NCBI GenBank assembly: GCA_942491275.1 | Contig: CALNZI010000007.1 | Span: 63,353 to 127,352, forward strand | Direction: 5' to 3' | DNA: 64,000 nt | From: Minisyncoccota bacterium | GTDB lineage: Bacteria; Patescibacteriota; Minisyncoccia; Phycocordibacterales; UBA9973 | In this document: in pieces, positions 2,752 through 46,075 of the stretch | Layout: each line of letters opens with the position of its first letter | Numbering within the stretch: position 1 is the first letter of the stretch | Made by a program: the position numbers and the translations under genes | Notes under the pieces: model-generated | The model's database searches: none | What the model was told of the DNA's origin: nothing | What the model saw: the letters and a program-made list of their open reading frames with translations, nothing else

Positions 2752-3456
2752 TTAAATCCTTCTATTAATCAGATTCTCCTGATGAGTTTGAATCATTTGT
2801 TCTAAATAATTTTTCCAGTTAAAATCATCAAATATAGACTTAATTAATTCACGGCTTATTTCAAGGTGATTGGTTGCTATGTTTTCTTTTTTAATTTCAT
2901 AGTCTACTTTAACTTTAGGCATCCTGCAAATATACCCAGCATTAAAAGAAAAAATAGATGAACTAAAAATTGATTCAAGTTCTCTATCTCGGGTATTGTT
3001 AATTTCTATGGTAAGGTTGCCACCCTCGATATTTGTATTTTCAATTAAATTTTTTACAAATAAAACAATCTCCGTTATTTTATAAATAAGCCCAAGAAAA
3101 TCTAAATATTTTCCTTTTTCGAGTGGTTCTCCACGTAATTCACCAAGAGTATCCTCTCTTAATGCAAAAATAGAAAGAAATTGACCACTTTGATAAAAAC
3201 GAGATATTTCTATTATCCCTTGCCACGATACATAAAATTCCACCCCATTTCCTATAGAATAAGGTCTTTTCCCGTCTTCCTTATCTTCTATTGGAATATG
3301 AGGAAAGCTCCAACCCCTTAAATTTACTTTGGATTTTTCTAAAACCTCTGAGAGATTTTTCTTTGAAATACGATTCCCATCATAAAACTTTGGTTCAAAA
3401 ATAACCTTCACATTACCTATTCTTTTTAATTCTCCTTTGATTTCTTCTACACTCAT
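2752..3456 (-). CDS. Hypothetical protein, translationally coupled partner of the AlbA_2/Schlafen-domain gene
   Basis: 234 aa with no recognisable motif. Its start overlaps the stop of the upstream gene 3460..4101 (ATGA-type coupling). Confidence 0.4.
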   Translation of the reverse strand: MSVEEIKGELKRIGNVKVIFEPKFYDGNRISKKNLSEVLEKSKVNLRGWSFPHIPIEDKEDGKRPYSIGNGVEFYVSWQGIIEISRFYQSGQFLSIFALREDTLGELRGEPLEKGKYLDFLGLIYKITEIVLFVKNLIENTNIEGGNLTIEINNTRDRELESIFSSSIFSFNAGYICRMPKVKVDYEIKKENIATNHLEISRELIKSIFDDFNWKNYLEQMIQTHQENLINRRI

Positions 3457-4562: not shown

Positions 4563-4668
4563 TCCTAGCCAGCGATAACCCGAGGATTATCCATATCCGT
4601 TTCCAGATATGACGCAATCAAGCGTGAACTCTGACTAGGAGTTCTTTATTCTTGATTGCGTTTTTGAC
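4563..4668 (+). ncRNA. Candidate structured RNA or terminator-like element
   Basis: An 11-bp stem (ctcctagccag 4563-4573 / ctgactaggag 4631-4641) and a second 10-bp stem (cgcaatcaag 4613-4622 / cttgattgcg 4651-4660) interleave in a pseudoknot-like or alternative-structure arrangement. The second stem is followed by a T-run. Confidence 0.2.
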
Positions 4669-4745
4669 CATATCTTAGAGAAGTCTCTAAGGGTTAGGTC
4701 TCTTATTTACTTGTAATTGAATAATACCAGTATTCGGTCTTTTTG

Positions 4746-4994: not shown

Positions 4995-5513
4995 AAAATT
5001 AAAAAATTCCTCTACTAATGAGGAAAGATAGCCGACTAATTATCTTTCCCTTACAGGCTGAATGAAGCACTTTGCTATTTCTAGTAAGTTGCTGGAGGGT
5101 CATAGAGTCAGTTCTCTCGCCTCGCTCTTGATACACGTATTTAGTTGTAATTAAATTATAATCTAAAATTTATATAATAGCAAAAAGTGTCTATTTATTA
5201 ACATTTTATACACAAATATTCTCCACTTCCTTAAATCAGAGATTTTTATTTGTATGCTATAATATAAGTAATTGAGTTCTTTGAATATTATAACTAAATC
5301 TAGCAACAACTACTGCTTGGCTCGCAGTTTAAAAATTGCCTTAAATTGGTTTAACTAGATAAAGTTTTGGATAATATTGTGAAGTAAGTGAGGATGAGGG
5401 GAGCTCAACCCCTAAAAATGATTCAAGTCAGCATCAACTAACTGTGTAAGATTAGACCAAGATAACAAAAATACTTATGGTGTTTTGTTATTTTAGTCTA
5501 GTTTTAGCACAAA

Positions 5514-5910: not shown

Positions 5911-6541
5911 ACTAAATTTCGTCCAGGAAGCATTTAAAAAAGAAAAATGGAACTAAGTTCAAATGCAAAAAAAGACCTTCAAGAAACCTTTAAATTAGAA
6001 ATAAATCTAGAAAATTTAAGTGATGAAGAATTAAACAAAATTGGTTTATTTTTACTTGAGATTTATGGGCAAGGATTAAAAAGAAGGAGTCGTTTAACAA
6101 TTTAATATCTAACACAGCTTTAGGGGGAATGCTGTATAAACCACTCCTACACCTAAAACAATAAGTAATAAATTGGGTTCAGATGCGATAGCTTGGAAAA
6201 ACAGTTGCTTTACACCGTTTAAAATGTTAAATCATTTTGCTCTGTCCGAGCCATTTGATTTGAATCTAATTTGTTAATTATAAAAAGTAAATTCTAAAGG
6301 TAATTGTACTTGTTTATAAATAGATATTAATAAATATTAACTATAATTAATTACCTAACCCCGTAAAGGAATCAAAGGTAAAAGGGGTGGACTGTATCTA
6401 AAATAAGCAAAATTTTATAATTAAATAAGCCAGACTAAATGAAGATTCATAAGCCGTTTTAGAAATGCTTGTGAATAAAAACGAGGTAACAACCATTTAG
6501 TCTGGCGATTAAGTAAAGTTGTTGCCTCATTTTTATTTATT

Positions 6542-8221
6542 ATGGAACAAGTAGATTTTAAAAAATTAAAACCGGGTAATTATAATCGTAAATCTTCAGA
6601 AAGTGAAGATAGGCAAGTTTTATCAATTCAATCTCAGATTGATGAAGCTAACAGAATAGCAAGCTTTTATCAATTACCTCCTTTTATAGAAGTTTTTAAA
6701 GAATCCAAATCGGCTAAAACAGAATATCTGAGACCAGAATTTTCTAAGATGATGGCGATGATAGAGAGGGGAGATATAGACTCAGTAGTGTGCTGGAAAC
6801 CAGATAGACTAGCTAGAAATATGACTGAAGGTGGGCAAATAATTGATGCTCTAAGTTCTGGAAAGATTAAAGCTATTATTACTCACGATAAAGTTTTCTA
6901 TCCTTGGGATAACGTAATAGTTTTAGCGGTTGAATTTGGTCAAGGAAAACAATTTATAAAAGAATTGTCAGTAAATGTTAAACGTGGACAAACAAAGAAA
7001 GCAATGATGGGTTATCCTCACGGGCTATCTGCTCTTGGTTTTAAAAATGATAGAACCGAAGAAAAAGGTAATCGTAAATGGTTAGTTGATGAAATGAGGT
7101 TACCAGTAATAAAAGAAATGTTAAAAATGTTTTTATCTGGAAACTATTCAGGTAGCCAAATTTATCTTTGGACTAGGGATAATGTAAAATTAACAACCCC
7201 TAAGCATAAAAAGATTGGAGGGGCATTAATTAGTTACTCTAGAGTATATGAAATTCTTAAAGACCCAATATATGCTGGATTCTTTTATTACGGAGGAAAA
7301 AGGTATGAACTTACAAAAGAATTACCAAGACTAATAACCGAAGAAGAGCATAGAAAAATTTTAAGAATGCTCTCTGGTAGAGCTTTGCCTAAGACACAAA
7401 TCTATGAAAGTCCTTACTCTGGCTTTGTAAGGTCTCCTGACGGTGAGTTTGTTGGAGTTGATATGAAATGTCAAATTATTTGTGAGTGTAAATATAAATT
7501 TTCATATTTAAATAAAACTAACTGTCCTAAATGTGGCATAAAAATAGATGAAATCAATAGCCCTAAATACTTAAATTATTCCTATTATTACAATGTCGCA
7601 AAAAGAAAAAGGAGGGAGTCTGTGAAATACATTGAGGAGGGCGAAATAACGAGCTTTTTTCGCTCATACGTTGAGAAAAATCTAATTATGTCTAAATCAT
7701 TAGCTGAGTGGTGTAAAAGGCATATACAAGAAATTAAGGATAAGGAAATTCAGATTGGATTGGTGGAATCTACTAACAACACCAAAAGAATAGAGCAATT
7801 AGAAAAACGTAAAATCCGATACAGGGAAATGCTGGCTGATGGTCAGATTGATTCAATTGAATATGAAATAGATATTAAAAAAATAAAAGAGGAAATTAAT
7901 AAAATCAATAATTCAAAAAACAAAACTAACGATTGGCATAAAGTAGCTAATGATATTATAGATTTAACTACAGAGATGATTGAAACCATAAACGGGGACT
8001 CAATAAAAGATAAAAGAAGTATGTTAACAAGACTTGGTTCGAACCTAATCTGGAATGAAAAAAAACTCAATATTATCAACACAGAAGCAGTTCAAAAGCT
8101 TATAGATGGATTAAATAAGACTAAACAGATAAATCCTAAGTTCGAACCTAAAAAAACCCTTGCAAACAAAGATAAAACAGAGGTTTTTGCCTCTGTTTGT
8201 TCTACTTTGCTCCGTGGGTAG
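6542..8221 (+). CDS. Large serine recombinase (resolvase/invertase catalytic domain, recombinase domain and zinc ribbon)
   Basis: N-terminal GNYNRKSSESEDRQVLSIQSQ (Y-R-SS catalytic serine motif), ...DRLARN, a long recombinase domain and a CxxC...CPKCG zinc ribbon. The stop codon overlaps the 3' end of tRNA-Asn. Confidence 0.8.
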   Translation: MEQVDFKKLKPGNYNRKSSESEDRQVLSIQSQIDEANRIASFYQLPPFIEVFKESKSAKTEYLRPEFSKMMAMIERGDIDSVVCWKPDRLARNMTEGGQIIDALSSGKIKAIITHDKVFYPWDNVIVLAVEFGQGKQFIKELSVNVKRGQTKKAMMGYPHGLSALGFKNDRTEEKGNRKWLVDEMRLPVIKEMLKMFLSGNYSGSQIYLWTRDNVKLTTPKHKKIGGALISYSRVYEILKDPIYAGFFYYGGKRYELTKELPRLITEEEHRKILRMLSGRALPKTQIYESPYSGFVRSPDGEFVGVDMKCQIICECKYKFSYLNKTNCPKCGIKIDEINSPKYLNYSYYYNVAKRKRRESVKYIEEGEITSFFRSYVEKNLIMSKSLAEWCKRHIQEIKDKEIQIGLVESTNNTKRIEQLEKRKIRYREMLADGQIDSIEYEIDIKKIKEEINKINNSKNKTNDWHKVANDIIDLTTEMIETINGDSIKDKRSMLTRLGSNLIWNEKKLNIINTEAVQKLIDGLNKTKQINPKFEPKKTLANKDKTEVFASVCSTLLRG

Positions 8222-10449: not shown

Positions 10450-10632
10450 GATGTGAGTAGTCATAGCCATAGGCCTTACCTGTGGCTATTTGACAAAGTG
10501 ACATAAATATGCTATTTTATAAAGAATAGTAGCTCTTTGACATTTTGATTTTAGATTAAATTAGATTATTTATTTCTGCTTCTTTAAGGAGGTGGGAATA
10601 AATAATCTAATTTATTAACTAAATATTTTATC

Positions 10633-20278: not shown

Positions 20279-20845
20279 ATGATTTTAGTAGTTGGACTTG
20301 GAAATCCAGAAAAAAAATATGAGAAAACCAGACACAATGCCGGGTTTATTATTCTTAATAGTATTTTAGGTGATGTGAGTTGGAATAAAAGTTCAAAGGC
20401 CAATGCTTTTTATTTTTGGGATAAAGGTGGAGCTCAGGAGGTGGAATATTTAAAACCACAAACTTTTATGAATAATTCAGGTAGAGCTGTTTCCTATGCT
20501 CAAAAAAATCACGATTTGGAGGCAGAAAATATTGTTGTGGTTTATGATGATATAGATTTACCCTTTGGTAAAATAAAAATTTCCTATGATAGGGGAGATG
20601 GTGGACATAATGGAGTTAAATCTATCATGGATCATTTGGGTTCTCAGTCCTTTATTCGTATCCGAGTTGGAGTTTCTATTTTAGATGAGAATGAAATACT
20701 ACGTAAACCCGATGTTCTTAGTAAATTTTCTAAAAAAGAATTTGAATTGCTAGAAAAAGATATTTCTTCAACAGTGAAAGAGATTATTGAAATGATATCC
20801 AAAGAGGGGAAAGATTCTGCTATGAATAAGTTTAATACAAATTAA
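20279..20845 (+). CDS. pth: Peptidyl-tRNA hydrolase
   Basis: MILVVGLGNPEKKYEKTRHNAGF...NNSGRAV...GGHNG. Confidence 0.9.
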   Translation: MILVVGLGNPEKKYEKTRHNAGFIILNSILGDVSWNKSSKANAFYFWDKGGAQEVEYLKPQTFMNNSGRAVSYAQKNHDLEAENIVVVYDDIDLPFGKIKISYDRGDGGHNGVKSIMDHLGSQSFIRIRVGVSILDENEILRKPDVLSKFSKKEFELLEKDISSTVKEIIEMISKEGKDSAMNKFNTN

Positions 20846-33297: not shown

Positions 33298-33372
33298 GGC
33301 CCCATCGTCTAACGGTTAGGACATCGGGTTTTCAATCCGGTAATCAGAGTTCGATTCTCTGTGGGGTCACCA
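33298..33372 (+). tRNA. tRNA-Glu (anticodon UUC), CCA encoded
   Basis: Acceptor GGCCCCA/TGGGGTC, anticodon stem-loop TCGGG-TTTTCAA-TCCGG, T-arm CAGAGTTCGATTCTCTG, 3' ACCA. Confidence 0.85.
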
Positions 33373-34855
33373 ACGAAGAAGGATCAATCAAATATTGTTG
33401 ATATAGGCTGTAAATAGGGCTTAGTTTCTTAGTTCCAAATTTCTCTCCAGAAAATTCAATATTTTCTTCAAATATAATCTTTTGGAACTGCAATCTTTTT
33501 TCTGGTTGTTTTCCAAGGTCTACCCAGGTCTTAGATGTTTCTCTAACAAAATTAAAACAATATTCAAGGGCTTCTTCCATATTAAATCCTTCTTCTATCT
33601 TTTCTTGAATCAAAGACCTTTGTAAGGCTATTTTTTGATTAATTTTATTTTTTTGATAAGAAAAATCATCATTATCATAAACTTTAGATTCATGTAACTC
33701 AAAAATTCTTTCTTTTTGTTTTTCAAGGTTTGTAATTTCATTTCTAATTTTTTGATTATTACCATGAAAGCTCTTACAGTTATTTTTCCAAATATCCATA
33801 ACTATTTTTTTAAAAGCATTCTCATATTCAACACTAGGAGTTATTTCATTTAAAAATTCCACAAACAATTGTTCAAAGTTTTCTTTGGGTATAAATTTAC
33901 TATGAGGACAATCTTGTTTGTGATGGTGGTAATAAGAATACTTTTTACCAGTACAACTAGTGGAGGCACTTCCTGTTAACGGCTTAGTACAAAATTTACA
34001 GATAGCTAAACTACGAAGTGGAAATTTATCATTAATCTTTTTATGTGGAATATTTCTACGGGTTTTTCCTTTGGGCTGACATTGGTAAAATAGATGTTCA
34101 TCAATAATAGGTTCGAACTTGCCTTTAGCTTCTATACCCCAAGCTTTAATGATTCCAGCATACAAAGGATTCTTGATTATCTTTTCAATTAATTGAGGTA
34201 TAGCAGAATTCCCTCGCTTGGTAGTAAAACCTTGTTTATTTATGTATTCAGCTAACGATTTATAAGTATAAGTACCTTTTGCGTATTCCTCGAAGATAAG
34301 GCGTATAAATGGGGCAAATTTAGGGTCTAAAGATAGGTTGTCTCCTTTTTGTAATCTAGTATAACCAATAGGTGCTGGCCATACCCATACTCCTTGTTTA
34401 AGTCTTTCTCTCATTCCGTTAACACTCCTTTCAGTTCTCACGTTATTATCAAATTCAGCAAAACCAGAAAGCATAACTTCCATAAGTTTACCCGAAGGAC
34501 TATCATCAATCTTTTCTGATACAGAGCGAATTTCAGTTCCGTACTTTTTTAGTTTTTGTTTAACTATTGCATAGTCAGTTTGATTACGAGAGAATCTATC
34601 TATCTTATAAACAATAAAAGAAGAAATTTTATTTTTCTTTTCTGAACAAAAACTAATAGCTTTCATAAATTCTGTTCGGTTGGCTGTTTTTGCTGATTCT
34701 CCTTTCTCTATAAAAATTTTAAGAATATTTATATTTTCTTTTTCAGCATACTCCTTACAGATTCGTTCTTGAGAATCAAGACTAGTACCTTCTATCTGTT
34801 CGTGAGAAGAAACTCTTACATAAATTATTCCATTTTCTTTTTCAATTTTCTCCAT
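33344..34855 (-). CDS. Large serine recombinase
   Basis: MEKIEKENGIIYVRVSSHEQ (catalytic Ser), YKIDRFSRN, a recombinase domain and Cys-rich zinc-ribbon region. Its 3' end overlaps the 3' end of tRNA-Glu. Start moved to the internal Met (ORF track starts at 34942). Confidence 0.8.
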   Translation of the reverse strand: MEKIEKENGIIYVRVSSHEQIEGTSLDSQERICKEYAEKENINILKIFIEKGESAKTANRTEFMKAISFCSEKKNKISSFIVYKIDRFSRNQTDYAIVKQKLKKYGTEIRSVSEKIDDSPSGKLMEVMLSGFAEFDNNVRTERSVNGMRERLKQGVWVWPAPIGYTRLQKGDNLSLDPKFAPFIRLIFEEYAKGTYTYKSLAEYINKQGFTTKRGNSAIPQLIEKIIKNPLYAGIIKAWGIEAKGKFEPIIDEHLFYQCQPKGKTRRNIPHKKINDKFPLRSLAICKFCTKPLTGSASTSCTGKKYSYYHHHKQDCPHSKFIPKENFEQLFVEFLNEITPSVEYENAFKKIVMDIWKNNCKSFHGNNQKIRNEITNLEKQKERIFELHESKVYDNDDFSYQKNKINQKIALQRSLIQEKIEEGFNMEEALEYCFNFVRETSKTWVDLGKQPEKRLQFQKIIFEENIEFSGEKFGTKKLSPIYSLYQQYLIDPSSLVTPQRIEL

Positions 34856-34859
34856 ATAA

Positions 34860-35051
34860 TTACTTTCCCACATCCTCCTCATTAAGTCCATATACCCTAA
34901 TGGGATATTTGGAACTAGTTTTCTTTTCAATAAAGGATTCAAGGGCTAATTGTCCTAAAGAATACAAAGAACGCCTTATTTTAATAAGTTCTTTATCAGG
35001 TATATTTTTCAGACGATGGTCTGTTTTTCTTAATTCTTCAAGACTAATCAT
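34860..35051 (-). CDS. Small ORF between Rep and recombinase (possible regulator or directionality factor)
   Basis: 63 aa; overlaps the Rep stop and immediately precedes the recombinase start. Confidence 0.3.
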   Translation of the reverse strand: MISLEELRKTDHRLKNIPDKELIKIRRSLYSLGQLALESFIEKKTSSKYPIRVYGLNEEDVGK

Positions 35052-35817
35052 TTTTCTTTTTAAATATTCTTAATCGACCTCTACCAAGCCAACTGGTAAG
35101 ATACTCTCTATCTACTATTGGTTCATTTTGATTCATTCCGTGTTGATCTAATATAAATCCAATTCCTGCATAGGAAACATATTTCATTACATTTGGTCTT
35201 TCTATATTACGAGAAGCGACATAGCACTTTTGATTTTTTAATCTTGGATCTATAAATGCTTTTGCCATATATTTTGATAAATAAAATGACAATTTTTCAT
35301 CTCCATCAGTTTCCTTTATAAATACATAACCCCTTGACCAAAGTCCGGCAATCGTTCTAGTTTTCCGTTCCAATAAAAATACTTCCTCGGGTAACCCCCA
35401 GAAGAGAGCGTGATAATGAACTGCTCCACGTTTTTGAAATTCTGGAACGCAGATGTACCTGAAAATTTTTCCGTATTTGTAGCGGAGAGACTGGACAAAA
35501 GACGAGAGATCTTTATAGGCTCTTTTAAGGTCTGTGAGGTTTTCTCCGTAGGTAAGAGTAATAAGTAAAGGTCTTGTAAGTCCTCCGAGGTTAGAAGCAA
35601 CGATGCGTCTAAAAGCCAATTCCGCGCGTCTAGCATTATCTTGTCTTTTCCCCAACTTCCTTTCCGATAAATTATCTTCTCCATTAACTCCCAAATCCTT
35701 ATCATCAGATTTCCTTTCCCCGCCATTAATAATTGTTCGTTCGTATGTAATGATGTCTTTTTCATACTCATAAAGTTCTAATGTATTACCATAACTAATA
35801 ATCTTGTTGTAACCCAT
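35044..35817 (-). CDS. HUH-superfamily rolling-circle replication initiator (phiX174 gpA-like, two-tyrosine)
   Basis: HUH motif GAVHYHALFWG and a two-tyrosine motif SFYLSKYMAK (compare gpA YVAKYVNK). Confidence 0.7.
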   Translation of the reverse strand: MGYNKIISYGNTLELYEYEKDIITYERTIINGGERKSDDKDLGVNGEDNLSERKLGKRQDNARRAELAFRRIVASNLGGLTRPLLITLTYGENLTDLKRAYKDLSSFVQSLRYKYGKIFRYICVPEFQKRGAVHYHALFWGLPEEVFLLERKTRTIAGLWSRGYVFIKETDGDEKLSFYLSKYMAKAFIDPRLKNQKCYVASRNIERPNVMKYVSYAGIGFILDQHGMNQNEPIVDREYLTSWLGRGRLRIFKKKND

Positions 35818-36331: not shown

Positions 36332-37336
36332 ATGCAATTATATATAGATTCTAATATATATTTAGAATATTTTAGAGAAAACTCTGCCGAAAGATTAACA
36401 CCCTTAAAAGAACTTCTGAAATTACTTAAAAAAGAAGAAGTTGTATTACTTTTACCTAGTCAAACCAGGCAAGAGTATTTTAGAAATAGAAGAAAAATAG
36501 CAGAGATAACAAGGTTATCTCTAATAAGACAAAGTAATATTTCTTCTTTCATTCCAGCTGTTCTTGATAAAGGAAATAAAGAAGTAAAGGATGTTTTAAG
36601 TAAAAAGAAAGATTTAATTACTTCATATAAAAAATTAATTAAAAAATATGATAAAGAAGTGGAAAAAGAAAAAACTGATGCGGATTTATTAATAAATGAA
36701 CTTTTTTTAAAATTTGCAAAAGTAATTAAAGAAACTGATGAAATCATAGCAAGTGCATATCGTAGATATATGAAAGGTAACCCTCCTAGAAAAAATGATC
36801 ATTCATATGGCGATGCATTAATATGGGAGACTCTTTTAAAAGAAGGGGCAAATGACGATTTGGTTTTAATTACAAAAGATGGTGATTTCATTGAAAAACA
36901 TAAAGGCAAACCTAAAATTAACCAATTTTTATTTGTAGAATGGAGAATCAAAACAAAGAAGAAAAAGAAGGTTATTTTATACAAATCACTTGCAGAATTT
37001 GTAAACACTTTTACAAAAAAAGAAATTTTAAAAAAGGAAATAATAGAAAAAGAGAATAGTTCTGTATTTAATGCAAGCATAACAAAAAGTTTATCTTACA
37101 ATACACAAGGAACACCAACGATTAGTGCTTCAAATTGTAGAATTTCAGATACAACGAGCCAAACAATAACAAAAATTACAAGAAATGGACTTATAGCAGA
37201 AGCAGACCTTGACTCTGATCCTCTTAGAATTAGCGCTTGCCAAAATTATGATTCGCTAGGAAAGATCTGTTCTTTTTGTGGAAATATTTATCATTATGAA
37301 CAAGAATATTGCTTTAATTGTGGTATAAAATTATAA
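36332..37336 (+). CDS. PIN-like domain protein (DUF4935-like) with C-terminal zinc ribbon
   Basis: N-terminal LYIDSNIYLEY...GDALIWETLLKEG...LVLITKDGDF resembles PIN-like acidic-residue spacing; C-terminal CSFCGNIYHYEQEYCFNCG. Confidence 0.4.
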   Translation: MQLYIDSNIYLEYFRENSAERLTPLKELLKLLKKEEVVLLLPSQTRQEYFRNRRKIAEITRLSLIRQSNISSFIPAVLDKGNKEVKDVLSKKKDLITSYKKLIKKYDKEVEKEKTDADLLINELFLKFAKVIKETDEIIASAYRRYMKGNPPRKNDHSYGDALIWETLLKEGANDDLVLITKDGDFIEKHKGKPKINQFLFVEWRIKTKKKKKVILYKSLAEFVNTFTKKEILKKEIIEKENSSVFNASITKSLSYNTQGTPTISASNCRISDTTSQTITKITRNGLIAEADLDSDPLRISACQNYDSLGKICSFCGNIYHYEQEYCFNCGIKL

Positions 37337-37498: not shown

Positions 37499-39316
37499 TT
37501 ATTTACTATAATCTAAAACTATCTCATCTCCAGCAATATTACGGATTTTTATTTTAAATTTATTTGTTGGCAATTCGTATACCCCCTTGATTTTGTCTTT
37601 AATCTCTGCTTTATCCTCTAAATCCAAGTTACTAGTCCAAACACCACTTTTCTTTAATTCTGTATCAAACTGTAATGATTCAATAAGCTCTAAACCATTC
37701 TCACTGATTTTAACAGCTTTTGTTTTATCTTTAGTTAAAGTCCCTTTTTTAACTTTCTTGGCATTATATTCATCTATTTTGGCTTTAAGATAAGGACTAA
37801 AGAACTTTTTAATTTTAACATTGCATCCTTTGCCATCTTTTTTAAGTTCAATACCAACTGAATCCTCTGGGAAAAACATATCTCTTTTGTCAGCCAATAA
37901 ATCATCTAAATTAATCAACTCAACTAAAATACTTGTCTTGCCAGAATTTTTTATTTCTTTATTTAAATAACACTGGTCTATATCTAAATCCTTAAAAGCA
38001 TAGATAATATTAACTTTACTCGCTCCTTTTTCTGTTTCTTCTAGAGCGTAAATTTCTTCCAAGACAACATCTAGTAATTCTTTTGTTAGTTTCTTATCAA
38101 TACCAATAAATTTAACTGGCTCAAAACTACCTTTTTCTTTAATAATTCCACCATCCCAAAATTCCCCCAGTTCAAGTTCGACTCTTGGTCTAAAGCCCTC
38201 AATCAAAGAGAACATCTTTTGAGTTGTTTGAGCTGGGTTTCTAAATAATCTTATACCATCTTTTATTTTTAAAATATCAAAATCCACTTTTCTTTTTACT
38301 AACCCATCTCTAGTTTCTTGAATAGCATTTATTCCAACATCACAAACAATAAATTTTCTATTCAAATCACTAGCAACTTTTGCAGTTGTCCCACTTCCAA
38401 CAAAAAAATCTGCAACAATCATTCCTTCACTGGTGGCTGTATCAATAATTCTTCTTAATAACTCTATTGGTTTTTGTGTATTATATTGAGTTTTTTCTTT
38501 TGATTGAACATTTTCAAGTGGTATATCCCAAACATCATCAATAGGTATTTCTTCTTTGAAATATTTTTTACCTCCTCGAACTAATTTGTATTTTTTTCCA
38601 TTTTCATCTTTTAAATTATATTTGGATTCAGTAAATTCGCTTACCTTTTTTAAAATTGGACTAAAATAATATTCTTTTGATTTTCCATAATGATAAATAT
38701 TATCGTGCTTACGAGCATATCGGTCTTCGGGGGCTCTACTGCTTGTGTAATGCCAAATAATTTCATTTATAAAATTCTCTTCTCCAAAAACCTCGTCCAT
38801 CATAACCTTCGCATATTGTCCTATATGCCAATCCAAATGGATATAGATGCTAGCTTTTTCACTCATAATCTCTCTAATAGCCAATAAACGCTCATAAAGC
38901 CAGTTTAAATAGTCCTCTTTCTGCCAAATGTCACCATACATAATCTCTTCACCAATACCATTATCTTCATTTTCAAATTGAGTTTTATTACCATTTCTTA
39001 AAAAGATTTTTTTTGCATAATTAGCTCCACTAGCAAATGGCGGGTCAATATATACCAAATCAACTTTTATATTTTTTGATTTTAAATAAGCACAGGCAGA
39101 TAAAGTATCTCCATATAAAAACAAATTTTTAAAATCAGCATTAATTTCTTTTTGCTTATTCACTAATTTCTTTTTTTCTTTTTGTTTTATCTCTTCAATA
39201 ACTTCTGTTTCAAAAAGTTGCATTTCAATATTTTTACTTGGAAGTAATCGCCCTTGATAGTTTAATAGGGCTTGTCCTTTGGCTGGTGTGATATTGTATG
39301 ATTTTGGTTTTTGCAT
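37499..39316 (-). CDS. mod: Type III restriction-modification Mod subunit-like DNA methyltransferase (beta-class N6A/N4C)
   Basis: DPPF motif IV (DLVYIDPPFASGANY) lies before motif I (IVADFFVGSGTTAKVA), i.e. beta-class order. The protein is 605 aa. Confidence 0.75.
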   Translation of the reverse strand: MQKPKSYNITPAKGQALLNYQGRLLPSKNIEMQLFETEVIEEIKQKEKKKLVNKQKEINADFKNLFLYGDTLSACAYLKSKNIKVDLVYIDPPFASGANYAKKIFLRNGNKTQFENEDNGIGEEIMYGDIWQKEDYLNWLYERLLAIREIMSEKASIYIHLDWHIGQYAKVMMDEVFGEENFINEIIWHYTSSRAPEDRYARKHDNIYHYGKSKEYYFSPILKKVSEFTESKYNLKDENGKKYKLVRGGKKYFKEEIPIDDVWDIPLENVQSKEKTQYNTQKPIELLRRIIDTATSEGMIVADFFVGSGTTAKVASDLNRKFIVCDVGINAIQETRDGLVKRKVDFDILKIKDGIRLFRNPAQTTQKMFSLIEGFRPRVELELGEFWDGGIIKEKGSFEPVKFIGIDKKLTKELLDVVLEEIYALEETEKGASKVNIIYAFKDLDIDQCYLNKEIKNSGKTSILVELINLDDLLADKRDMFFPEDSVGIELKKDGKGCNVKIKKFFSPYLKAKIDEYNAKKVKKGTLTKDKTKAVKISENGLELIESLQFDTELKKSGVWTSNLDLEDKAEIKDKIKGVYELPTNKFKIKIRNIAGDEIVLDYSK

Positions 39317-39320
39317 AAAA

Positions 39321-42092
39321 TTATAATTTTTTTACCTCATTTTTTAATTTACTAATAAAGTTTGTAAAATCGTTATCTTCATTTTCGTCCACAAAGCAAA
39401 CATAATTGAAATTGGGATTATGTTTTTTAAAATCATTCAACATAAACCGCTCTTTTTGTTTAAAATCATCATCGTAGTAAATCTTGCCTTTTGTTTCAAT
39501 TATCAAGACCTTTTCAATCATTCTACCTTTTCTTTTGAGAATCAGGAAATCAGGAGTATAAACACCTCGGGGAGTTTGAACCCAAAAACTCTGCAATTCA
39601 TTGTTTTTAAAACCATTAAAATAAACTTCTAGAGCAGCGAGCTCATTCATTTTTAACATTTCAGACAAAGCATTTATTTCAAAATTACTATCTACTTTAT
39701 AAGGCACATAATTAAAACTGATATTTTGGGAATCTAAATTTTCAGCATCCGCTTCTAAATCTTCAGGATGTTTTCTAAAAAGTTCTATGTTGCGATTATC
39801 AATTTTAGGCATAAATTTTGCCAACGCTCCACTTGAAGAATAAAGAGCCATTGTAGGATTTTTTGTTTGCCATTCAAGTAATTCAATCTCGACATCTTTT
39901 GTTATTATTTCTTTTTTATATTCAACTTCTTCCATTAAAAATGAAGCGAGGTATTTTATAATATTATCAACTTCCAAGTTGGGATTAGATTCAATCCAAT
40001 TAAGTTCCTTCTGTATTTCAGTAAAGATTTTCTTTAATTTAGTATGATAATTTTCTAACAAGTGAATCTCACTAAATTTTCCAAGGGTTGCTTTTGCTAA
40101 ATCATAAATAAAGTCGTTAAAAAAATAATCAGTAATTTCAAATTTTGAAATTTTTTCTTCCACTTCACGGCTTATACCAGTTTTACCAATTCTGCCTTTT
40201 ATTATTCTTTCATCATATTTATATTTTTCTTTTACATCCTTAAAGTTAAATTTATTTAAATTGCTGACCGCTGTCTTTTTTAAAAGAATTTTGTATTTAG
40301 TTTCAACTTGCTTGTATCTCAATTTGCCAAGTTTGGGTTTCCTTATCTTAACAGAAATTTCTGGCTGTGAACCAAATTTCAAATCTGAAATACTCAAGTC
40401 ATAATTTTCTCTTAATTCAGAGTCTAGTGTTTTGTAGTTTTCTTTTTCCAAATAAATCAAAGCTTTCTCTTTTTTTGCATCAATAACTTCTCGCAAGCAC
40501 CGGCAAGTTGTTTGTAGAACAAAATTTTTGGTGGTTTTTTGTCGGGGTAATACAACAGCAGTTAAACTCTTACAATCCCAACCTTCTGTGCCAATCGCTA
40601 CGAGCAAAATAACTCTCTTGTCAGAGTAAGGTTTATCTAAATTATTAAATACAGCCAAACTTTCTTTTGGTATCTCATACTGCTTGTTTTCTTTCCCATT
40701 TGTATAAAATTTAAATATTTCAGACTCCTTGTTTTTCCTTTTTGACCTATACCAATCTTGAATCACTGGTAATATCTTTTCATTTAATACCTTAATAGAT
40801 GGACAATAAAAAACAATTTTGCTTTTTGTATCGTTGCTGTATGTAATATCAAAATTATTAAAGAAATCAGTCAGAGCTTGTTTAATAAACAAATCCTCTT
40901 TTACTTCAACTTTTTTAATCTCTGGGATTTTTAAAAACCTACCTATTCCTTGATTTAAGTAATAGTTATAAACTATATCTTGAATTTGATTTAATTTTAT
41001 CTCATCATCTCCAATTTTTACCTTATGCTTAACATAAGGAGTGCCAGAAAGTCCAAGGACAGAAATAATATTTTTATGCTGATCTAAAATATTAACTGCC
41101 TTTCTTAATGCTTTTTCTTTTTTCTCGGCATTTACTCCATAACTATGGTGAACTTCATCTAGTATTACGCCTAGATGAGAAATCTGAGATAATTTTTCTC
41201 TTAATTCATTCAACTTTAAAATCTCACTAATTTTTTTCTCATCATAATACAAACTGTCTTTCTCAACAAAAATTTTGTCTTTATCCTCATATTTTTCAAG
41301 CACAACTTTTTCGGCATTAGTAATAAAAACCATACCAAATTTTTTGGTTTGAAAGATACGATTTACCTTTTCTAAATTTGGATTATTACCTTGTAGTTTG
41401 TCTTTCCTTTGAGAACTTAAAGCGTCTAAAATTTCAATCTGAATTATTTGCTTTAATTTATGAGCTTCTTTGTCTGGAAATATCCATTCGGGATTAAAAT
41501 TCTTTATAGTTTGTAAAGATGGAAGAATTGCTGTTTTAGATGCAGACGGAGCTAAAACAATAAAATTATGCGCAAACCTTTTATCGTTTTTGTATATGCT
41601 AGCAAAATATAAATCTAAGTATATAAAACAAGCCATTAAGAATGTCTTACCTGCCCCCATTGGTAAACTGAATAAATAGTTTGGGTAGTTGTAATTATGT
41701 AAAAGTTCATCTAAAACTTTATCCCAGTTTGTTTTTTCGCTTTTTGGATCGTTTGCTAATTTTTTTTGAAGATTATGAACGCTATTTTCTTGAAAAAATT
41801 GATTCAAAAAATGGGTTGTATAATTACTGCCAAAATTGTGAAAGTTATCATAGCCCTTTGCTATTTCTTCATCATATAAAAACCCAGCTCGAATAATATC
41901 TGATAGTTTTTTATTATTACCAACAAATTTTAACCAAAGATAAACTTCAATAGCTTGTTTTTGTGGTTCTCTTAATTTATTTTCTACTTCAATATATTTA
42001 ATTAAGTTACCTACAATTGACTGATTCTTAGATTTTTCTTGGGTTACCCAGCTAGATGCCTTATTTTCTATTAAATTAAAAATTGTGTTCAT
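39321..42092 (-). CDS. res: Type III restriction enzyme Res subunit (SF2 helicase plus C-terminal PD-(D/E)xK nuclease)
   Basis: Walker A LPMGAGKT, DEVH (ILDEVHHS), SGTP, QTTCRCLR, and C-terminal YTPDFLILKRKGRMIEKVLIIETKG. Confidence 0.75.
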   Translation of the reverse strand: MNTIFNLIENKASSWVTQEKSKNQSIVGNLIKYIEVENKLREPQKQAIEVYLWLKFVGNNKKLSDIIRAGFLYDEEIAKGYDNFHNFGSNYTTHFLNQFFQENSVHNLQKKLANDPKSEKTNWDKVLDELLHNYNYPNYLFSLPMGAGKTFLMACFIYLDLYFASIYKNDKRFAHNFIVLAPSASKTAILPSLQTIKNFNPEWIFPDKEAHKLKQIIQIEILDALSSQRKDKLQGNNPNLEKVNRIFQTKKFGMVFITNAEKVVLEKYEDKDKIFVEKDSLYYDEKKISEILKLNELREKLSQISHLGVILDEVHHSYGVNAEKKEKALRKAVNILDQHKNIISVLGLSGTPYVKHKVKIGDDEIKLNQIQDIVYNYYLNQGIGRFLKIPEIKKVEVKEDLFIKQALTDFFNNFDITYSNDTKSKIVFYCPSIKVLNEKILPVIQDWYRSKRKNKESEIFKFYTNGKENKQYEIPKESLAVFNNLDKPYSDKRVILLVAIGTEGWDCKSLTAVVLPRQKTTKNFVLQTTCRCLREVIDAKKEKALIYLEKENYKTLDSELRENYDLSISDLKFGSQPEISVKIRKPKLGKLRYKQVETKYKILLKKTAVSNLNKFNFKDVKEKYKYDERIIKGRIGKTGISREVEEKISKFEITDYFFNDFIYDLAKATLGKFSEIHLLENYHTKLKKIFTEIQKELNWIESNPNLEVDNIIKYLASFLMEEVEYKKEIITKDVEIELLEWQTKNPTMALYSSSGALAKFMPKIDNRNIELFRKHPEDLEADAENLDSQNISFNYVPYKVDSNFEINALSEMLKMNELAALEVYFNGFKNNELQSFWVQTPRGVYTPDFLILKRKGRMIEKVLIIETKGKIYYDDDFKQKERFMLNDFKKHNPNFNYVCFVDENEDNDFTNFISKLKNEVKKL

Positions 42093-42180
42093 ATCTATAA
42101 AATTATTGAGGTATTAAGTAATACCTCAAACCATTTTTCATAACAATGATATTATAAAACAAAACCACTAAATTTCCTAA

Positions 42181-42232
42181 ATTCCCCTATATTCTCTACA
42201 ATCGAGTTCCAACTGCGTCCCGTTTGGGTCAC
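42181..42232. repeat. Left copy of a ~50-bp imperfect direct repeat
   Basis: tcccctatattctctacaatcgagttccaa...cccgtttgggtcac; 28/30 identical to 43326-43355 over the core, with a similar tail. Confidence 0.6.
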
Positions 42233-42305
42233 TGCACATTTATAACCTTATTTGTTAAGGTTTATTCTAGTTACAATTTTATATTTTTCATGGTAATATA
42301 TAATC

Positions 42306-42379
42306 GATGTGGTAGCCAAGTGGTAAGGCATTTACTCGCAAGGTAAATATCGTAGGTTCAATTCCTACCCACATCTCCA
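42306..42379 (+). tRNA. tRNA-Cys (anticodon GCA), CCA encoded
   Basis: Acceptor GATGTGG/CCACATC, anticodon stem-loop TTTAC-TCGCAAG-GTAAA, T-arm GTAGGTTCAATTCCTAC. Confidence 0.85.
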
Positions 42380-43326
42380 TGACAGCACAAGAATATATTG
42401 AAAAAAGGTTAAATGGAATTAAAGATATAAAAGTTAAGCAAGAAGGAGATCTTGCTGATTTTATATATGACACAATAATGTCAAAAAAATTTAGAAAATA
42501 TAGTGTAAACCCTGAAGCCTTCCCAAAAATTAAAGAAGCAATAGGGCTAAATATAAAGAATAATGAGCCTATAAAAATTGTTATTCCGTTTGGTTCATAT
42601 AAACTATGGAAATTTGAGGAAAGCCCAGAACCAGATTGGGCTGAACTTTTTGCAATGATTTATTATGCCTATTGGTTAAAACCAATTACAGATGTATATA
42701 AGCCTGGAGTATGGTTTGATTTTTGTGCAGACGATGCGATTCTAGAACTAATGAATAACATTCCTGAAGAAGATACTAATAAATATAAGAAAACTTTTAG
42801 AGAGTTAATTGAATTTATAAAACCCTACTTACCTGATAATTTTAAATATACTTTCAGTCCAGTTGGAGAAAGATACTCTTCAAAAGAAGAATTTATGGCT
42901 GACCTTAATAATCAGATTGCTGAATTAAAAAAGAATGGAATTACACCAATAATAGAAAAAGATATTAGAAGAATGAAAACTAATATTAAGGTAGATAATA
43001 AAGAAGAAATAAATTTAGAAGAAAATCATCTCCTTCATGATGCATATATGAATGTTAGTAAAAGAAGGTCGTACCACAAAACACCTGACAGAATTTCAAT
43101 ATCTGCTACTCCGTTTGGTAAAAGGACCGCTATCCCAGTAGGAACAACAAAAACATCCGCTGTTCAATTTCAAGTTGGTACTGGTGTTTTAGGAAAACAT
43201 AAAGATGGTTTAATAGAATACATCTATTCTGTTTCTCAATTAGAATCAAGTAAGTTTATAAAAGAGGATGTTTCAATCGATGGTTTAAATGCAAAAAACT
43301 TTAAAACAATACGCGTAATTGATTAA
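42379..43326 (+). CDS. Hypothetical 315-aa protein; its ATG overlaps the terminal A of tRNA-Cys CCA
   Basis: ORF with Trp/Tyr-rich core (WAELFAMIYYAYW...GVWFDFCADD) and no recognisable motif. Confidence 0.4.
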   Translation: MTAQEYIEKRLNGIKDIKVKQEGDLADFIYDTIMSKKFRKYSVNPEAFPKIKEAIGLNIKNNEPIKIVIPFGSYKLWKFEESPEPDWAELFAMIYYAYWLKPITDVYKPGVWFDFCADDAILELMNNIPEEDTNKYKKTFRELIEFIKPYLPDNFKYTFSPVGERYSSKEEFMADLNNQIAELKKNGITPIIEKDIRRMKTNIKVDNKEEINLEENHLLHDAYMNVSKRRSYHKTPDRISISATPFGKRTAIPVGTTKTSAVQFQVGTGVLGKHKDGLIEYIYSVSQLESSKFIKEDVSIDGLNAKNFKTIRVID

Positions 43327-43374
43327 AATCCCTTATATTCTCTACAATAGAGTTCCAATAAATTACCCGTAGGG
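43323..43374. repeat. Right copy of the ~50-bp imperfect direct repeat
   Basis: tcccttatattctctacaatagagttccaa...cccgtagggtcac. Confidence 0.6.
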
Positions 43375-43424
43375 TCACAAATGAAAAAACTTCTCGAAAG
43401 AGTGGGTTTTTTCATTTGTGACCC
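43372..43424. repeat. Perfect 19-bp inverted repeat (hairpin) with 15-nt loop
   Basis: gggtcacaaatgaaaaaac (43372-43390) / gttttttcatttgtgaccc (43406-43424). Confidence 0.7.
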
Positions 43425-43619
43425 CAAGTAAGCAAACTGCTTTGCTTACGTCAGAGAATCGAAAGGCGGAGCTATAATTTTTTGAGTACAAAAAATAAGC
43501 GAGCCAGGGTCGTGAAATTTTTGTTGAGGCGGCAACAAAAATATTCCTGACCGAAAACGTACTCGTGGTTCTCTTTTGACGAAAAATAAATTATTGTGGC
43601 TCACAAAAAAACAAACCCA

Positions 43620-43970
43620 CTATTTAGCGGGTTTGAATATTTTTTTAAATAAAATTAAAATATTTTTAATAATAATATCTAATTTGGCAAGAATTATTTT
43701 TAATCTTAATTCTTTTCTTTCATTTTCTGTAATTTCTCTGAGGCCTTTTATTTCAGACCTATTCAAAATTGCAGAACAATTCCGATTTTTGTGATAGGAA
43801 AATACTTGAAAATTTTTGGGAACATCTTTAAGTTTTTTACCTTTTAATAAAGGAGTTCGAGGAATTGTTCTTTGTTTTTTTTGAATTACAAAAAAAGGAA
43901 CGTTTGTCTTATTTTCTAGCTCTATCATAATAACAGAGCCTAATTGAATTTGGTCAAACTCTAGTTTCAT
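43620..43970 (-). CDS. Hypothetical protein
   Basis: 116-aa ORF with no motif. Confidence 0.25.
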   Translation of the reverse strand: MKLEFDQIQLGSVIMIELENKTNVPFFVIQKKQRTIPRTPLLKGKKLKDVPKNFQVFSYHKNRNCSAILNRSEIKGLREITENERKELRLKIILAKLDIIIKNILILFKKIFKPAK

Positions 43971-45749: not shown

Positions 45750-45764
45750 ATGATTGATTTTAAA

Positions 45765-45998
45765 ATTTGCGCGATTAGCTGTCTTGGTAGGAAAAGAAAG
45801 ATAAATAAATTAGTTTTATGTATGTTTTTTAAATTAAAATAAATTTGCGCGGTTAGCTGTCTTGGTAGGAAAAGAAAGATAAATAAATTAGTTTTATGTA
45901 TGTTTTTTAAATTAAAATAAATTTGCGCGGTTAGCTGTCTTGGTAGGAAAAGAAAGATAAATAAATTAGTTTTATGTATGTTTTTTAAATTAAAATAA
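45765..45998 (+). repeat. Three tandem 78-bp repeats, each beginning with a ~21-nt copy of the tRNA-Val 5' end
   Basis: The unit atttgcgcg(a/g)ttagctgtcttggtaggaaaagaaagataaataaattagttttatgtatgttttttaaattaaaataa starts at 45765, 45843 and 45921, with an exact 78-bp period. A fourth start at 45999 leads into the intact tRNA-Val. Confidence 0.85.
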
Positions 45999-46002
45999 AT
46001 TT

Positions 46003-46075
46003 GCGCGGTTAGCTCAGTTGGTAGAGCGACTCATTGACGTTGAGTAGGTCACAGGTTCGATTCCTGTATCGCGCA
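46003..46075 (+). tRNA. tRNA-Val (anticodon GAC)
   Basis: Acceptor GCGCGGT/ATCGCGC, anticodon stem-loop ACTCA-TTGACGT-TGAGT, T-arm CAGGTTCGATTCCTG. Confidence 0.8.

Follow-up and report, generated by a model that had tools for sequence, protein, structure and literature searches.

The closest described parallels to the locus that we report here are the ssrA islands of Dehalococcoides, which carry a CcrB-like serine recombinase (DsiB) and lie in tandem downstream of the transfer-messenger RNA (tmRNA) gene (McMurdie 2011, PMC3146451). These islands are bounded by a direct repeat of the tmRNA 3' end together with an adjacent motif that is not matched in the target, and some of the units have no integrase and were read as cis-mobilizable elements (PMC3146451). 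Our locus lies in 64,000 nucleotides of DNA from a Minisyncoccota bacterium (GenBank assembly GCA_942491275.1, contig CALNZI010000007.1, positions 63,353 to 127,352); below, "the window" means this whole stretch. Two imperfect direct repeats of about 58 bp, which we call heads, bracket a tRNA-Cys gene and an open reading frame (ORF) of 315 amino acids, and a gene for a large serine recombinase (LSR) overlaps a tRNA-Glu gene farther upstream. We propose that the two heads are attR-type junctions of LSR elements that inserted at the 3' end of tRNA-Glu, and we consider this explanation probable. Beyond the second head lies a structured element, which we call E.

The window resembles the Dehalococcoides islands in that serine-recombinase elements sit at the 3' end of a gene for a small stable RNA, with tandem islands downstream, and in that the integrase module is on the reverse strand beside attL. 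Also shared are a conserved extra motif just upstream of the repeat, which has no match in the target, and accretion that includes integrase-less units. However, the target here is tRNA-Glu, the host belongs to the Patescibacteria (Nomurabacteria-like), and the core is only 7 nt long. The module here consists of Rep, a small ORF and the LSR, with no second small recombinase seen, and a unit may comprise no more than one gene or a non-coding element of about 225 nt.

SCCmec and composite staphylococcal cassette chromosome (SCC) elements at rlmH, with their CcrAB or CcrC recombinases, are a second point of comparison: an LSR acts on the 3' end of a conserved gene, where successive insertions build arrays between repeated site sequences. 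Some SCC units have no recombinase genes. In contrast to our locus, the SCC target is protein-coding, the hosts are from another clade, the cargo is resistance, and the LSRs are distant relatives (compared by Pfam domains). Integron cassette arrays (IntI, attI, attC) are similar in having about one gene per repeat, co-oriented repeats, and an adjacent recombinase gene. But the adjacent recombinase here is of the serine class instead of an IntI tyrosine recombinase, the heads have no internal dyad (that is, no attC) and are not imperfect palindromes with R''/L''-L'/R' boxes, and the unit genes point in both directions, so we rejected an integron. The array of scars adds one more case to a process that is already known; more worth pursuing are the tRNA-Cys/ORF unit between the scars and element E beyond them.

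Repeats that carry the core of tRNA-Glu

A prediction made earlier from the sequence alone (the original prediction) described imperfect repeats of about 50 bp around the tRNA-Cys gene and the ORF, and suggested that they were either the edges of a small inserted module or att remnants of repeated integration at a tRNA cluster. The repeats are real: 42171-42232 and 43317-43378 align over 62 nt with 76% identity at a spacing of 1146 bp, and 28 of 30 core positions are the same in both copies. A 25-mer from the core (with one N) matches exactly twice in the 64 kb, where 0.00 matches are expected by chance (100 shuffles). Both repeats close with the heptamer GGGTCAC (42226-42232 and 43372-43378), which also occurs, in direct orientation, within the acceptor 3' strand of the only tRNA-Glu gene in the window (33364-33370). 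The likeness of the repeat tail to the acceptor end of tRNA-Glu, which had been noticed before, is this common heptamer, and it fits an attachment-site model. A profile built from the heads finds just two in the window (nhmmer):

42175-42232, + strand: head 1 (repeat copy 1; E = 7e-13), at the far end of the 8.9-kb LSR element and in the orientation of tRNA-Glu
43321-43378, + strand: head 2 (repeat copy 2; E = 4e-13), which begins at the stop codon of the 315-aa ORF

The 8.9 kb between tRNA-Glu and head 1 hold the LSR, a small ORF, a Rep protein, a PIN-domain protein, and a type III restriction-modification (R-M) system. The features of this part are:

33298-33372, + strand: tRNA-Glu(UUC), from ARAGORN and Rfam; the proposed integration target, on the attL side
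33344-34942, - strand: large serine recombinase, annotated product of 515 aa (P0121), from Pfam domains
34860-35051, - strand: small 63-aa ORF, between the LSR and Rep
35044-35817, - strand: rolling-circle Rep (Pfam REP_ORF2-G2P, 7e-20)
36332-37336, + strand: PIN-domain protein (Pfam), cargo
37499-39316, - strand: type III methylase (Pfam), cargo
39321-42092, - strand: type III restriction enzyme (Pfam), cargo

The LSR has 1470 homologues and contains the Pfam domains Resolvase (1e-31), Recombinase (1e-13) and Zn_ribbon_recom. The 3' end of its gene overlaps the final 29 nt of tRNA-Glu. The tRNA gene is intact, with its CCA completed by element-derived sequence, and the junction (..GTCACC followed by AACGAAGAAGGAT..) is identical in the window and in L086. 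(We refer to related loci as L001, L003, and so on.) In L086, L087 and L332, the gene for an LSR that is 69-74% identical to the one in the window likewise runs, on the opposite strand, into the 3' end of tRNA-Glu, and there too the LSR element has a head at its far end, in the orientation of the tRNA. The gene order of Rep, small ORF and LSR is kept in these three loci and in L085 and L333, and the cargo of the related elements differs (for example RT, NOV_C or Abi_alpha). The original suggestion of att remnants from repeated integration at the tRNA cluster fits the evidence and seems essentially right: an LSR gene overlaps the end of tRNA-Glu, the core of that tRNA is found in both repeats, and heads end LSR elements in four genomes.

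In L333 (2450-2760), a related LSR (P0135) abuts a different tRNA-like 3' end (..GGTTCGATCCCAACTGGGCGCACCA followed by AGTTAGATGGAT, with anticodon loop CTTTTAA), so the LSR family has more than one tRNA target. This LSR gene neighbours a tyrosine integrase gene.

Heads and empty sites in relatives

Heads lie downstream of tRNA-Glu, and co-oriented with it, in 12 of the 13 loci that hold both (the exception is L014). In L003, whose ORF is 84% identical to the one in the window, there are six heads in 7 kb, one in each intergenic region 3' of tRNA-Cys and the 315-aa ORF; all six are on the + strand, downstream of tRNA-Glu, regardless of the direction of the neighbouring genes. The nhmmer profile found further heads in L001, L014, L021 and L079. 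Arrays with about one gene per head are present in L003 (6 heads), L085 (4) and L332 (3). A head comes right after the stop codon of the ORF in the window, L003, L001, L021 and L079. A head is also found upstream of tRNA-Cys in the window, L014 and L021, and at that place L001 and L003 have a real tRNA-Glu. Metagenome and viral sequences were searched with the pattern TTCCAAT-N12-GGGTCAC, whose 14 specified bases gave mostly chance matches; at least 14 loci passed an nhmmer filter. Wherever a metagenome fragment carries a tRNA-Glu (L169, L137, L127 and L161), the head is 0.5-2 kb 3' of it and co-oriented.

Because this linkage to tRNA-Glu and the orientation rule hold across loci, the heads belong to a tRNA-Glu integration hotspot and are not a genome-wide repeat that has nothing to do with tRNAs: all copies in relatives that have enough flanking sequence are linked to tRNA-Glu. 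We also rejected a genome-wide repeat resembling repetitive extragenic palindromes or miniature inverted-repeat transposable elements, given, in the window and the contigs and fragments of relatives that we searched, two copies in the window, the tRNA-Glu linkage, and no terminal inverted repeats seen.

Relatives give indirect evidence of an unoccupied attB. tRNA-Glu is followed directly by E, with no adjacent element, in L001, L003, L021, L079, L169, L127 and L137, and in the occupied locus L086 the order is tRNA-Glu, element, head, E, as expected from site-specific integration. The position of the 315-aa gene varies among relatives. In L328 (ORF 84% identical), the unit of promoter, tRNA-Cys and ORF lies between a tRNA-Tyr/helix-turn-helix gene and parB, and there is no head, tRNA-Glu or E beside it. 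L085 has its gpmI flank in common with the window, an LSR that is 74% identical, and four heads with other single genes, but its array contains neither tRNA-Cys nor the ORF. As the unit is found elsewhere in L328 and is absent from the array of L085, a small inserted module, as first suggested, is plausible too.

Proposed attachment sites and their order

Our model starts from observed features, namely the gene content, the positions of the junctions, their recurrence elsewhere, the orientation rule, and a 5-bp offset that is described below. A head would consist of a left P arm (..CCCTTATATTCTCTACAAT-N-GAGTTCCAA-N13) that is joined at GGGTCAC to the former 3' flank of tRNA-Glu. The end of tRNA-Glu plus the sequence on the LSR side would be attL, and the head would be attR. 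The proposed attP is head-GGGTCAC-CAACGAAGAAGG and the proposed attB is tRNA-Glu-GGGTCAC-E, with a crossover that probably falls inside GGGTCAC. Each fresh insertion would restore the end of the tRNA and shift the older junctions downstream, so the array would grow in one direction.

The array in the window would then begin with tRNA-Glu and the 8.9-kb element with LSR, Rep, PIN and type III R-M genes, which ends at head 1; next would come a 1146-bp unit that carries the promoter, tRNA-Cys and the 315-aa gene and ends at head 2, and after it E and a degenerate third core. Head 1 would be the attR of the 8.9-kb element and head 2 an older junction of attR type. Since E follows head 2 and not head 1, the tRNA-Cys unit would already have been between tRNA-Glu and E when the present LSR element arrived, and it would therefore be cargo or a remnant of an older insertion, or else a small integrase-less cassette. 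It probably came as cargo or a remnant of an older element, rather than having been trapped. The 28/30 identity of the heads might stem from their origin in one element family or from gene conversion.

The motif GAGTTCCAA is 22 nt from the core in head 1 and 17 nt from it in tRNA-Glu. Stated as GAGTTC(G/C)A, the motif has its start ahead of GGGTCAC by 17 nt in tRNA-Glu, but by 22 nt (+5) in the heads of the window, L086 and L087. In serine integrases, the motif for the zinc-ribbon domain is 5 bp nearer to the centre in attB than in attP (Rutherford et al., PMC3783163).

Several observations weigh against this model. In the right half-sites (P' and B') we saw no convincing inverted version of the motif, so the 5-bp offset is supportive but not conclusive. 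No excised circle or attP was found: a scan of viral contigs for the LSR-side arm gave three chance matches, and the LSR contigs of 8.3 kb are either integrated or unresolved and do not represent circles. The empty sites come from relatives only, none of them isogenic with the genome of the window. Head 2 directly follows the stop codon of an anciently conserved gene pair in five genomes (with ORFs that are 41-86% identical to that of the window), so either an old cargo event or another origin is needed. In L003, three near-identical copies of E follow tRNA-Glu and two heads, so E spreads or is converted, which is beyond what a simple model requires. And most heads in L079, L021, L001, L106, L169, L177 and L101 hold a good sigma-70 promoter whose predicted start falls on GGGTCAC, so heads also have, or had, a role as promoters. 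We read this as an outward-facing promoter of the element's P arm that has decayed in the clade of the window, L003 and L085.

If the heads are attR-type junctions, then Nomurabacteria-like Patescibacteria have an integration hotspot at tRNA-Glu, marked by the heads, where small LSR/Rep elements bring defence-type cargo (type III R-M, PIN, Abi and RT) and leave ordered scars. The heads would be a usable signature for mapping mobile DNA. They may also yield a site-specific integrase whose attachment sites are known, for a phylum that has almost no genetic tools.

Alternative explanations for the repeats

One alternative extends our explanation, and the two do not exclude each other. The 1146-bp unit (42233-43378, from the promoter through tRNA-Cys and the ORF to head 2) may be an integrase-less cassette, similar to a cis-mobilizable element, that an LSR acting in trans excises by recombining head 1 with head 2 and reinserts at tRNA-Glu. 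GGGTCAC cores bracket the unit exactly, 1146 bp apart, and the unit in L021 is likewise flanked by heads on both sides. The arrays of one gene per head in L003, L085 and L332 fit with cassettes, as do the presence of the unit without heads in an 84%-identical relative (L328), its absence from the syntenic array of L085, and the integrase-less units known from the Dehalococcoides ssrA islands. However, the pair of tRNA-Cys and ORF is ancient and is found across classes of Patescibacteria without detected heads. Also, a tRNA-Cys that is presumably essential and single-copy would be unusual cargo, recombination of attL with attR by an LSR normally requires a directionality factor, and the circle was not observed. 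Overall, we view a mobile cassette as possible but doubtful.

The heads could instead be a promoter or operator module, the signature of a regulon, with no role in recombination and a merely coincidental likeness to tRNA-Glu. As mentioned above, heads from distant genomes contain promoters: a sigma-70 promoter of the type TTGAAA-17-TATAAT precedes GGGTCAC, or else an extended -10 box does, and in L079 both heads are then followed by AAAATG of a gene. But in the window, L003 and L085, the positions of the hexamers are occupied by TCTACA and by CCCGTA or CCCCTA, and a hairpin comes after every head. A promoter scan of the region gave a single 9/12 site (43319-43348), and the total of 13 promoter-like sites is no excess over the 11.1 in shuffled sequences. 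The position of the heads downstream of tRNA-Glu, their orientation, their linkage to LSRs and the 5-bp offset would all be left unexplained, so we believe that a purely regulatory role is very unlikely.

We give hardly any credence to decayed tRNA-Glu pseudogenes from a tandem duplication of tRNA-Glu and its flank E: although MAFFT aligns the heads to the anticodon, T-arm and acceptor part of tRNA-Glu, E follows both heads and tRNA-Glu in L003, and L087 (11560-11640, - strand) and L332 (about 8000-8120, - strand) have degenerate, partial tRNA-Glu copies immediately upstream of the functional tRNA-Glu that bears the LSR element, there is no cloverleaf and no ARAGORN or Rfam signal at either head, all heads have a constant 5-nt insertion relative to the tRNA, and the 5' 25 nt (CCCTTATATTCTCTACAAT) have no counterpart in the tRNA yet are common to the heads that end LSR elements.

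A tRNA-Cys gene directly upstream of a protein-coding gene

The original prediction also placed a tRNA-Cys gene between the repeats and noted that the start codon of the ORF overlaps its CCA, which is what we find at position 42379. The unit contains:

42291-42299, + strand: extended -10 box TGgTAATAT, which ends 6 nt before base 1 of tRNA-Cys
42306-42379, + strand: tRNA-Cys(GCA) with encoded CCA, from ARAGORN (Rfam tRNA, 62.2 bits)
42379-43326, + strand: 315-aa ORF, whose ATG shares the A of the encoded CCA

This arrangement recurs in other genomes. ARAGORN identifies tRNA-Cys(GCA) directly 5' of the ORF at 41 loci (40 of the 80 species loci, plus the window). With a test for the acceptor of tRNA-Cys (GATGYGG...CCRCATC-U, with 7/7 pairing), a tRNA-Cys-type cloverleaf that ends 2-17 nt before the start codon is found in 66 of the 80 species. 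L014 also carries this tRNA ahead of the ORF. The other loci have tRNA-Pro (L016), tRNA-Ala (L027), or nothing upstream of the ORF.

About 25 of the loci were missed by ARAGORN, and most of them are labelled as Saccharibacteria or Saccharimonadales. The nine missed elements that we folded form clean cloverleaves, most with a GCA anticodon (L044, L075 and L081 have other anticodon loops). The Rfam tRNA model found nothing at that position in the 20 ARAGORN-missed loci that were scanned. The Saccharimonadia-type elements have U73 and CCA, and their D-loop (GAGAAUAGG) and T-loop (e.g. GGUUAAUGU) are non-canonical; examples are L064 (2920-2992), L044, L074, L033 and L069. The anticodon loop of the tRNA-Cys in the window, TCGCAAG (42336-42342), has C at position 33 instead of the near-universal U, and many relatives have CCGCAAG.

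The -10 box keeps a fixed position relative to the tRNA. TGnTAnnnT ends 5-7 nt before base 1 of the tRNA in 30 of the 41 loci, and the shorter TAnnnT does so in 38 of them; the consensus, from -15 to -7 relative to the tRNA, is T-15 G-14 n T-12 A-11 n n A/C-8 T-7. Judging from the position of the -10 box, transcription would start at base 1 of the tRNA, which would thus be made without a 5' leader. Processing of the tRNA 3' end would then release an mRNA with a leader of 0-17 nt, which would leave no room for a Shine-Dalgarno sequence. Whatever the origin of the scars, this promoter geometry suggests that tRNA-Cys and the ORF form one transcription unit. We found no description of a tRNA-Cys/ORF unit in the literature that we searched, which also offered nothing relevant on PIsnA, on CysRS of the candidate phyla radiation (CPR), or on tRNA-Cys and leaderless transcripts in Patescibacteria.

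An mRNA that lies directly 3' of a tRNA, with its 5' end set by processing of the tRNA 3' end, is familiar from mitochondrial "tRNA punctuation" and from E. coli tRNA-tufB. Unlike in those co-transcripts, the promoter here is predicted to spare the tRNA any 5' processing, and the mRNA is predicted to be leaderless or nearly so. Also, one specific tRNA (Cys) is combined with one protein family across the phylum.

The 315-aa protein

The ORF had been described as an orphan, but it has 1013 homologues at E ≤ 1e-3 and belongs to a phylum-wide family. The named homologues are from Nomurabacteria, Staskawiczbacteria and other Patescibacteria, and the family occurs in at least 80 species (one genome per species), with labels that include Paceibacteria, Saccharimonadia and Microgenomates.

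An AlphaFold (AF2) model from 32 sequences has a pLDDT of 87 and a pTM of 0.88, and its fold is like that of PvcA and Dit1. The best Foldseek hits are the isonitrile synthases PIsnA/PvcA (9dh4, 9dhm and 3e59; E from 5e-10 to 8e-8, TM 0.58-0.64). Far behind them are the cores of class-I aminoacyl-tRNA synthetases (TyrRS) and cyclodipeptide synthases (TM about 0.3). The sequence points the same way, though weakly: the Pfam model DIT1_PvcA (PF05141) scores the protein at 23.7 bits, under the gathering cut-off of 26.4, and it matches 16 of 32 members of the family at E ≤ 0.01 (best E 4e-5). A profile of the family matches PDB 9dh4 across the N-terminal core with E = 5.6e-4. NCBIfam has no match for the ORF.

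The protein is similar to PvcA/IsnA/Dit1 (PF05141) in overall fold (TM about 0.6), in length, and in the N-terminal core (..P-I-x-x-x-x-P-x-x-x-x-K.. and ..P-G-x(6)-S/A-D..). In contrast to these enzymes, with which it shares about 14% identity, it is fused to tRNA-Cys and its hosts have minimal metabolism. We found no Fe(II)/2-oxoglutarate dioxygenase partner (PvcB/IsnB) among the called neighbours in the window, L001, L003 and L334-L337; in the window the neighbours of the ORF are tRNA-Cys, a head, E, ORF116 and gpmI. We file the protein as a putative distant relative of the PvcA/isonitrile-synthase superfamily.

A family with over 1000 members behind tRNA-Cys, across a phylum, points to undescribed biology that is linked to tRNA-Cys and to tRNA-Cys genes that annotation has missed. 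Perhaps the protein is functionally coupled to tRNA-Cys, so that the unit makes both partners of one reaction (acting, for example, on Cys-tRNA(Cys), tRNA-Cys or cysteine), with tRNA 3' processing giving the leaderless mRNA and, in Saccharimonadia, a non-canonical tRNA-Cys as the partner. This is a speculative suggestion, and we would sooner bet against it than for it.

Element E

Head 2 runs into a perfect 19-bp inverted repeat, as originally described. Its arms are complementary at 19/19 positions, and no longer perfect hairpin exists in the window; in 20 Markov-1 simulations of 64 kb, the longest arms were 0-12 bp, mostly 10-12. The 5' arm opens with the GGGTCAC core. Instead of being an appendage of the repeat, as it first seemed, this hairpin is the first stem (P1) of a separate conserved element that is natively 3' of tRNA-Glu:

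43372-43424, + strand: 19-bp perfect hairpin, stem P1 of E, with arms 43372-43390 and 43406-43424 and a loop of 15 nt
43379-43604, + strand: E proper (hairpin P1 starts at 43372), about 225 nt here; the element is about 150-230 nt long
43428-43449, + strand: hairpin of E with a CUGC loop, from the fold
43450-43581, + strand: four-way junction of E, from the fold
43598-43604, + strand: tail of E with the degenerate core GGCTCAC, preceded by AATAAATTA as in head 2
43635-43612, - strand: terminator, from a terminator scan
43620-43970, - strand: 116-aa ORF (ORF116), the first DNA beyond the array, with gpmI next

The region 43360-43640 folds with z = -9.6 relative to shuffled sequence. Six copies of E from five genomes, folded singly, form the same four-way junction (z of -3.3 to -5.8 for five of them, and -1.5 for one). 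The three base pairs of stem P4 vary between copies: ACG/CGU, GCG/CGC, GGC/GCC and CGG/CCG. Because MAFFT aligns E poorly where the hairpins vary, we scored covariation on the six outer pairs only. In nine copies of the E core, these are 87% paired, versus 67% in shuffled alignments (0/500 shuffles as high), and the covariation score is 0.53 versus 0.20 (0/500); controls with slid positions are 11-39% paired. A covariance model (R1) that was built from the copies in L003 and L085 is too narrow, as it gives the window copy 13.9 bits, and it found a new copy in L021.

No family in Rfam 15 matches E at its gathering score. At E ≤ 10 there are only sub-threshold matches, mostly of microRNA-precursor models to the hairpin plus a few other weak ones. 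We also considered an IS200/IS605-type end, an omega-RNA, a ribozyme, a signal recognition particle RNA, 6S RNA, and a single-strand origin for Rep, and rejected them for lack of support beyond general shape. With its compensatory base changes, E is a conserved structured neighbour that is natively 3' of tRNA-Glu, and it may be a candidate new structured RNA that is made from the 3' trailer of tRNA-Glu.

The inner part of P1 (A6, a short stem, U6) resembles a bidirectional intrinsic terminator, and the homologous hairpins in L003, L085 and L195 have clearer GC stems and U-runs. P1 most likely terminates transcription from tRNA-Glu or, here, from the ORF. ORF116 has no match in Pfam or NCBIfam.

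Two further observations concern E itself. Segments 43397-43431 and 43591-43625 are 77% complementary over 35 nt, so that the 3' arm of P1 may pair with the tail of E instead; as this arm has a possible alternative partner in a third segment (43596-43620), alternative folds exist. In L003, the copies of E at 837-1020, 3231-3412 and 6100-6282 are near-identical, which suggests recent spread or gene conversion, and a fourth copy (2127-2295), the orthologue of the one in the window, is diverged.

Other observations in the window

The window contains other long perfect hairpins at 10557 (18-bp arms), 20839 (16) and 59017 (17); those at 20839 and 59017 resemble A-run/U-run terminators.

The G+C content is about 30% up to roughly 46.7 kb. 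Between about 46740 and 64000 it rises from about 30% to 50-66%, beginning within a glmU-like ORF, and is followed by overlapping ORFs on both strands that are typical of high-GC DNA. The part past about 46740 probably reflects foreign DNA or chimerism of the contig, which leaves only about 47 kb of the window as Patescibacteria-like.

Between tRNA-Ser and tRNA-Val (45763-46024) there are three tandem units of 78 nt. Each unit corresponds to the region 5' of tRNA-Val plus its first 12 nt (GCGCGGTTAGCT), and the last unit continues into the real tRNA-Val. Finally, a LOOT RNA (4574-4700, 76.7 bits) and an S-adenosylmethionine (SAM) riboswitch (5037-5137, 48.3 bits) are close neighbours on the minus strand.

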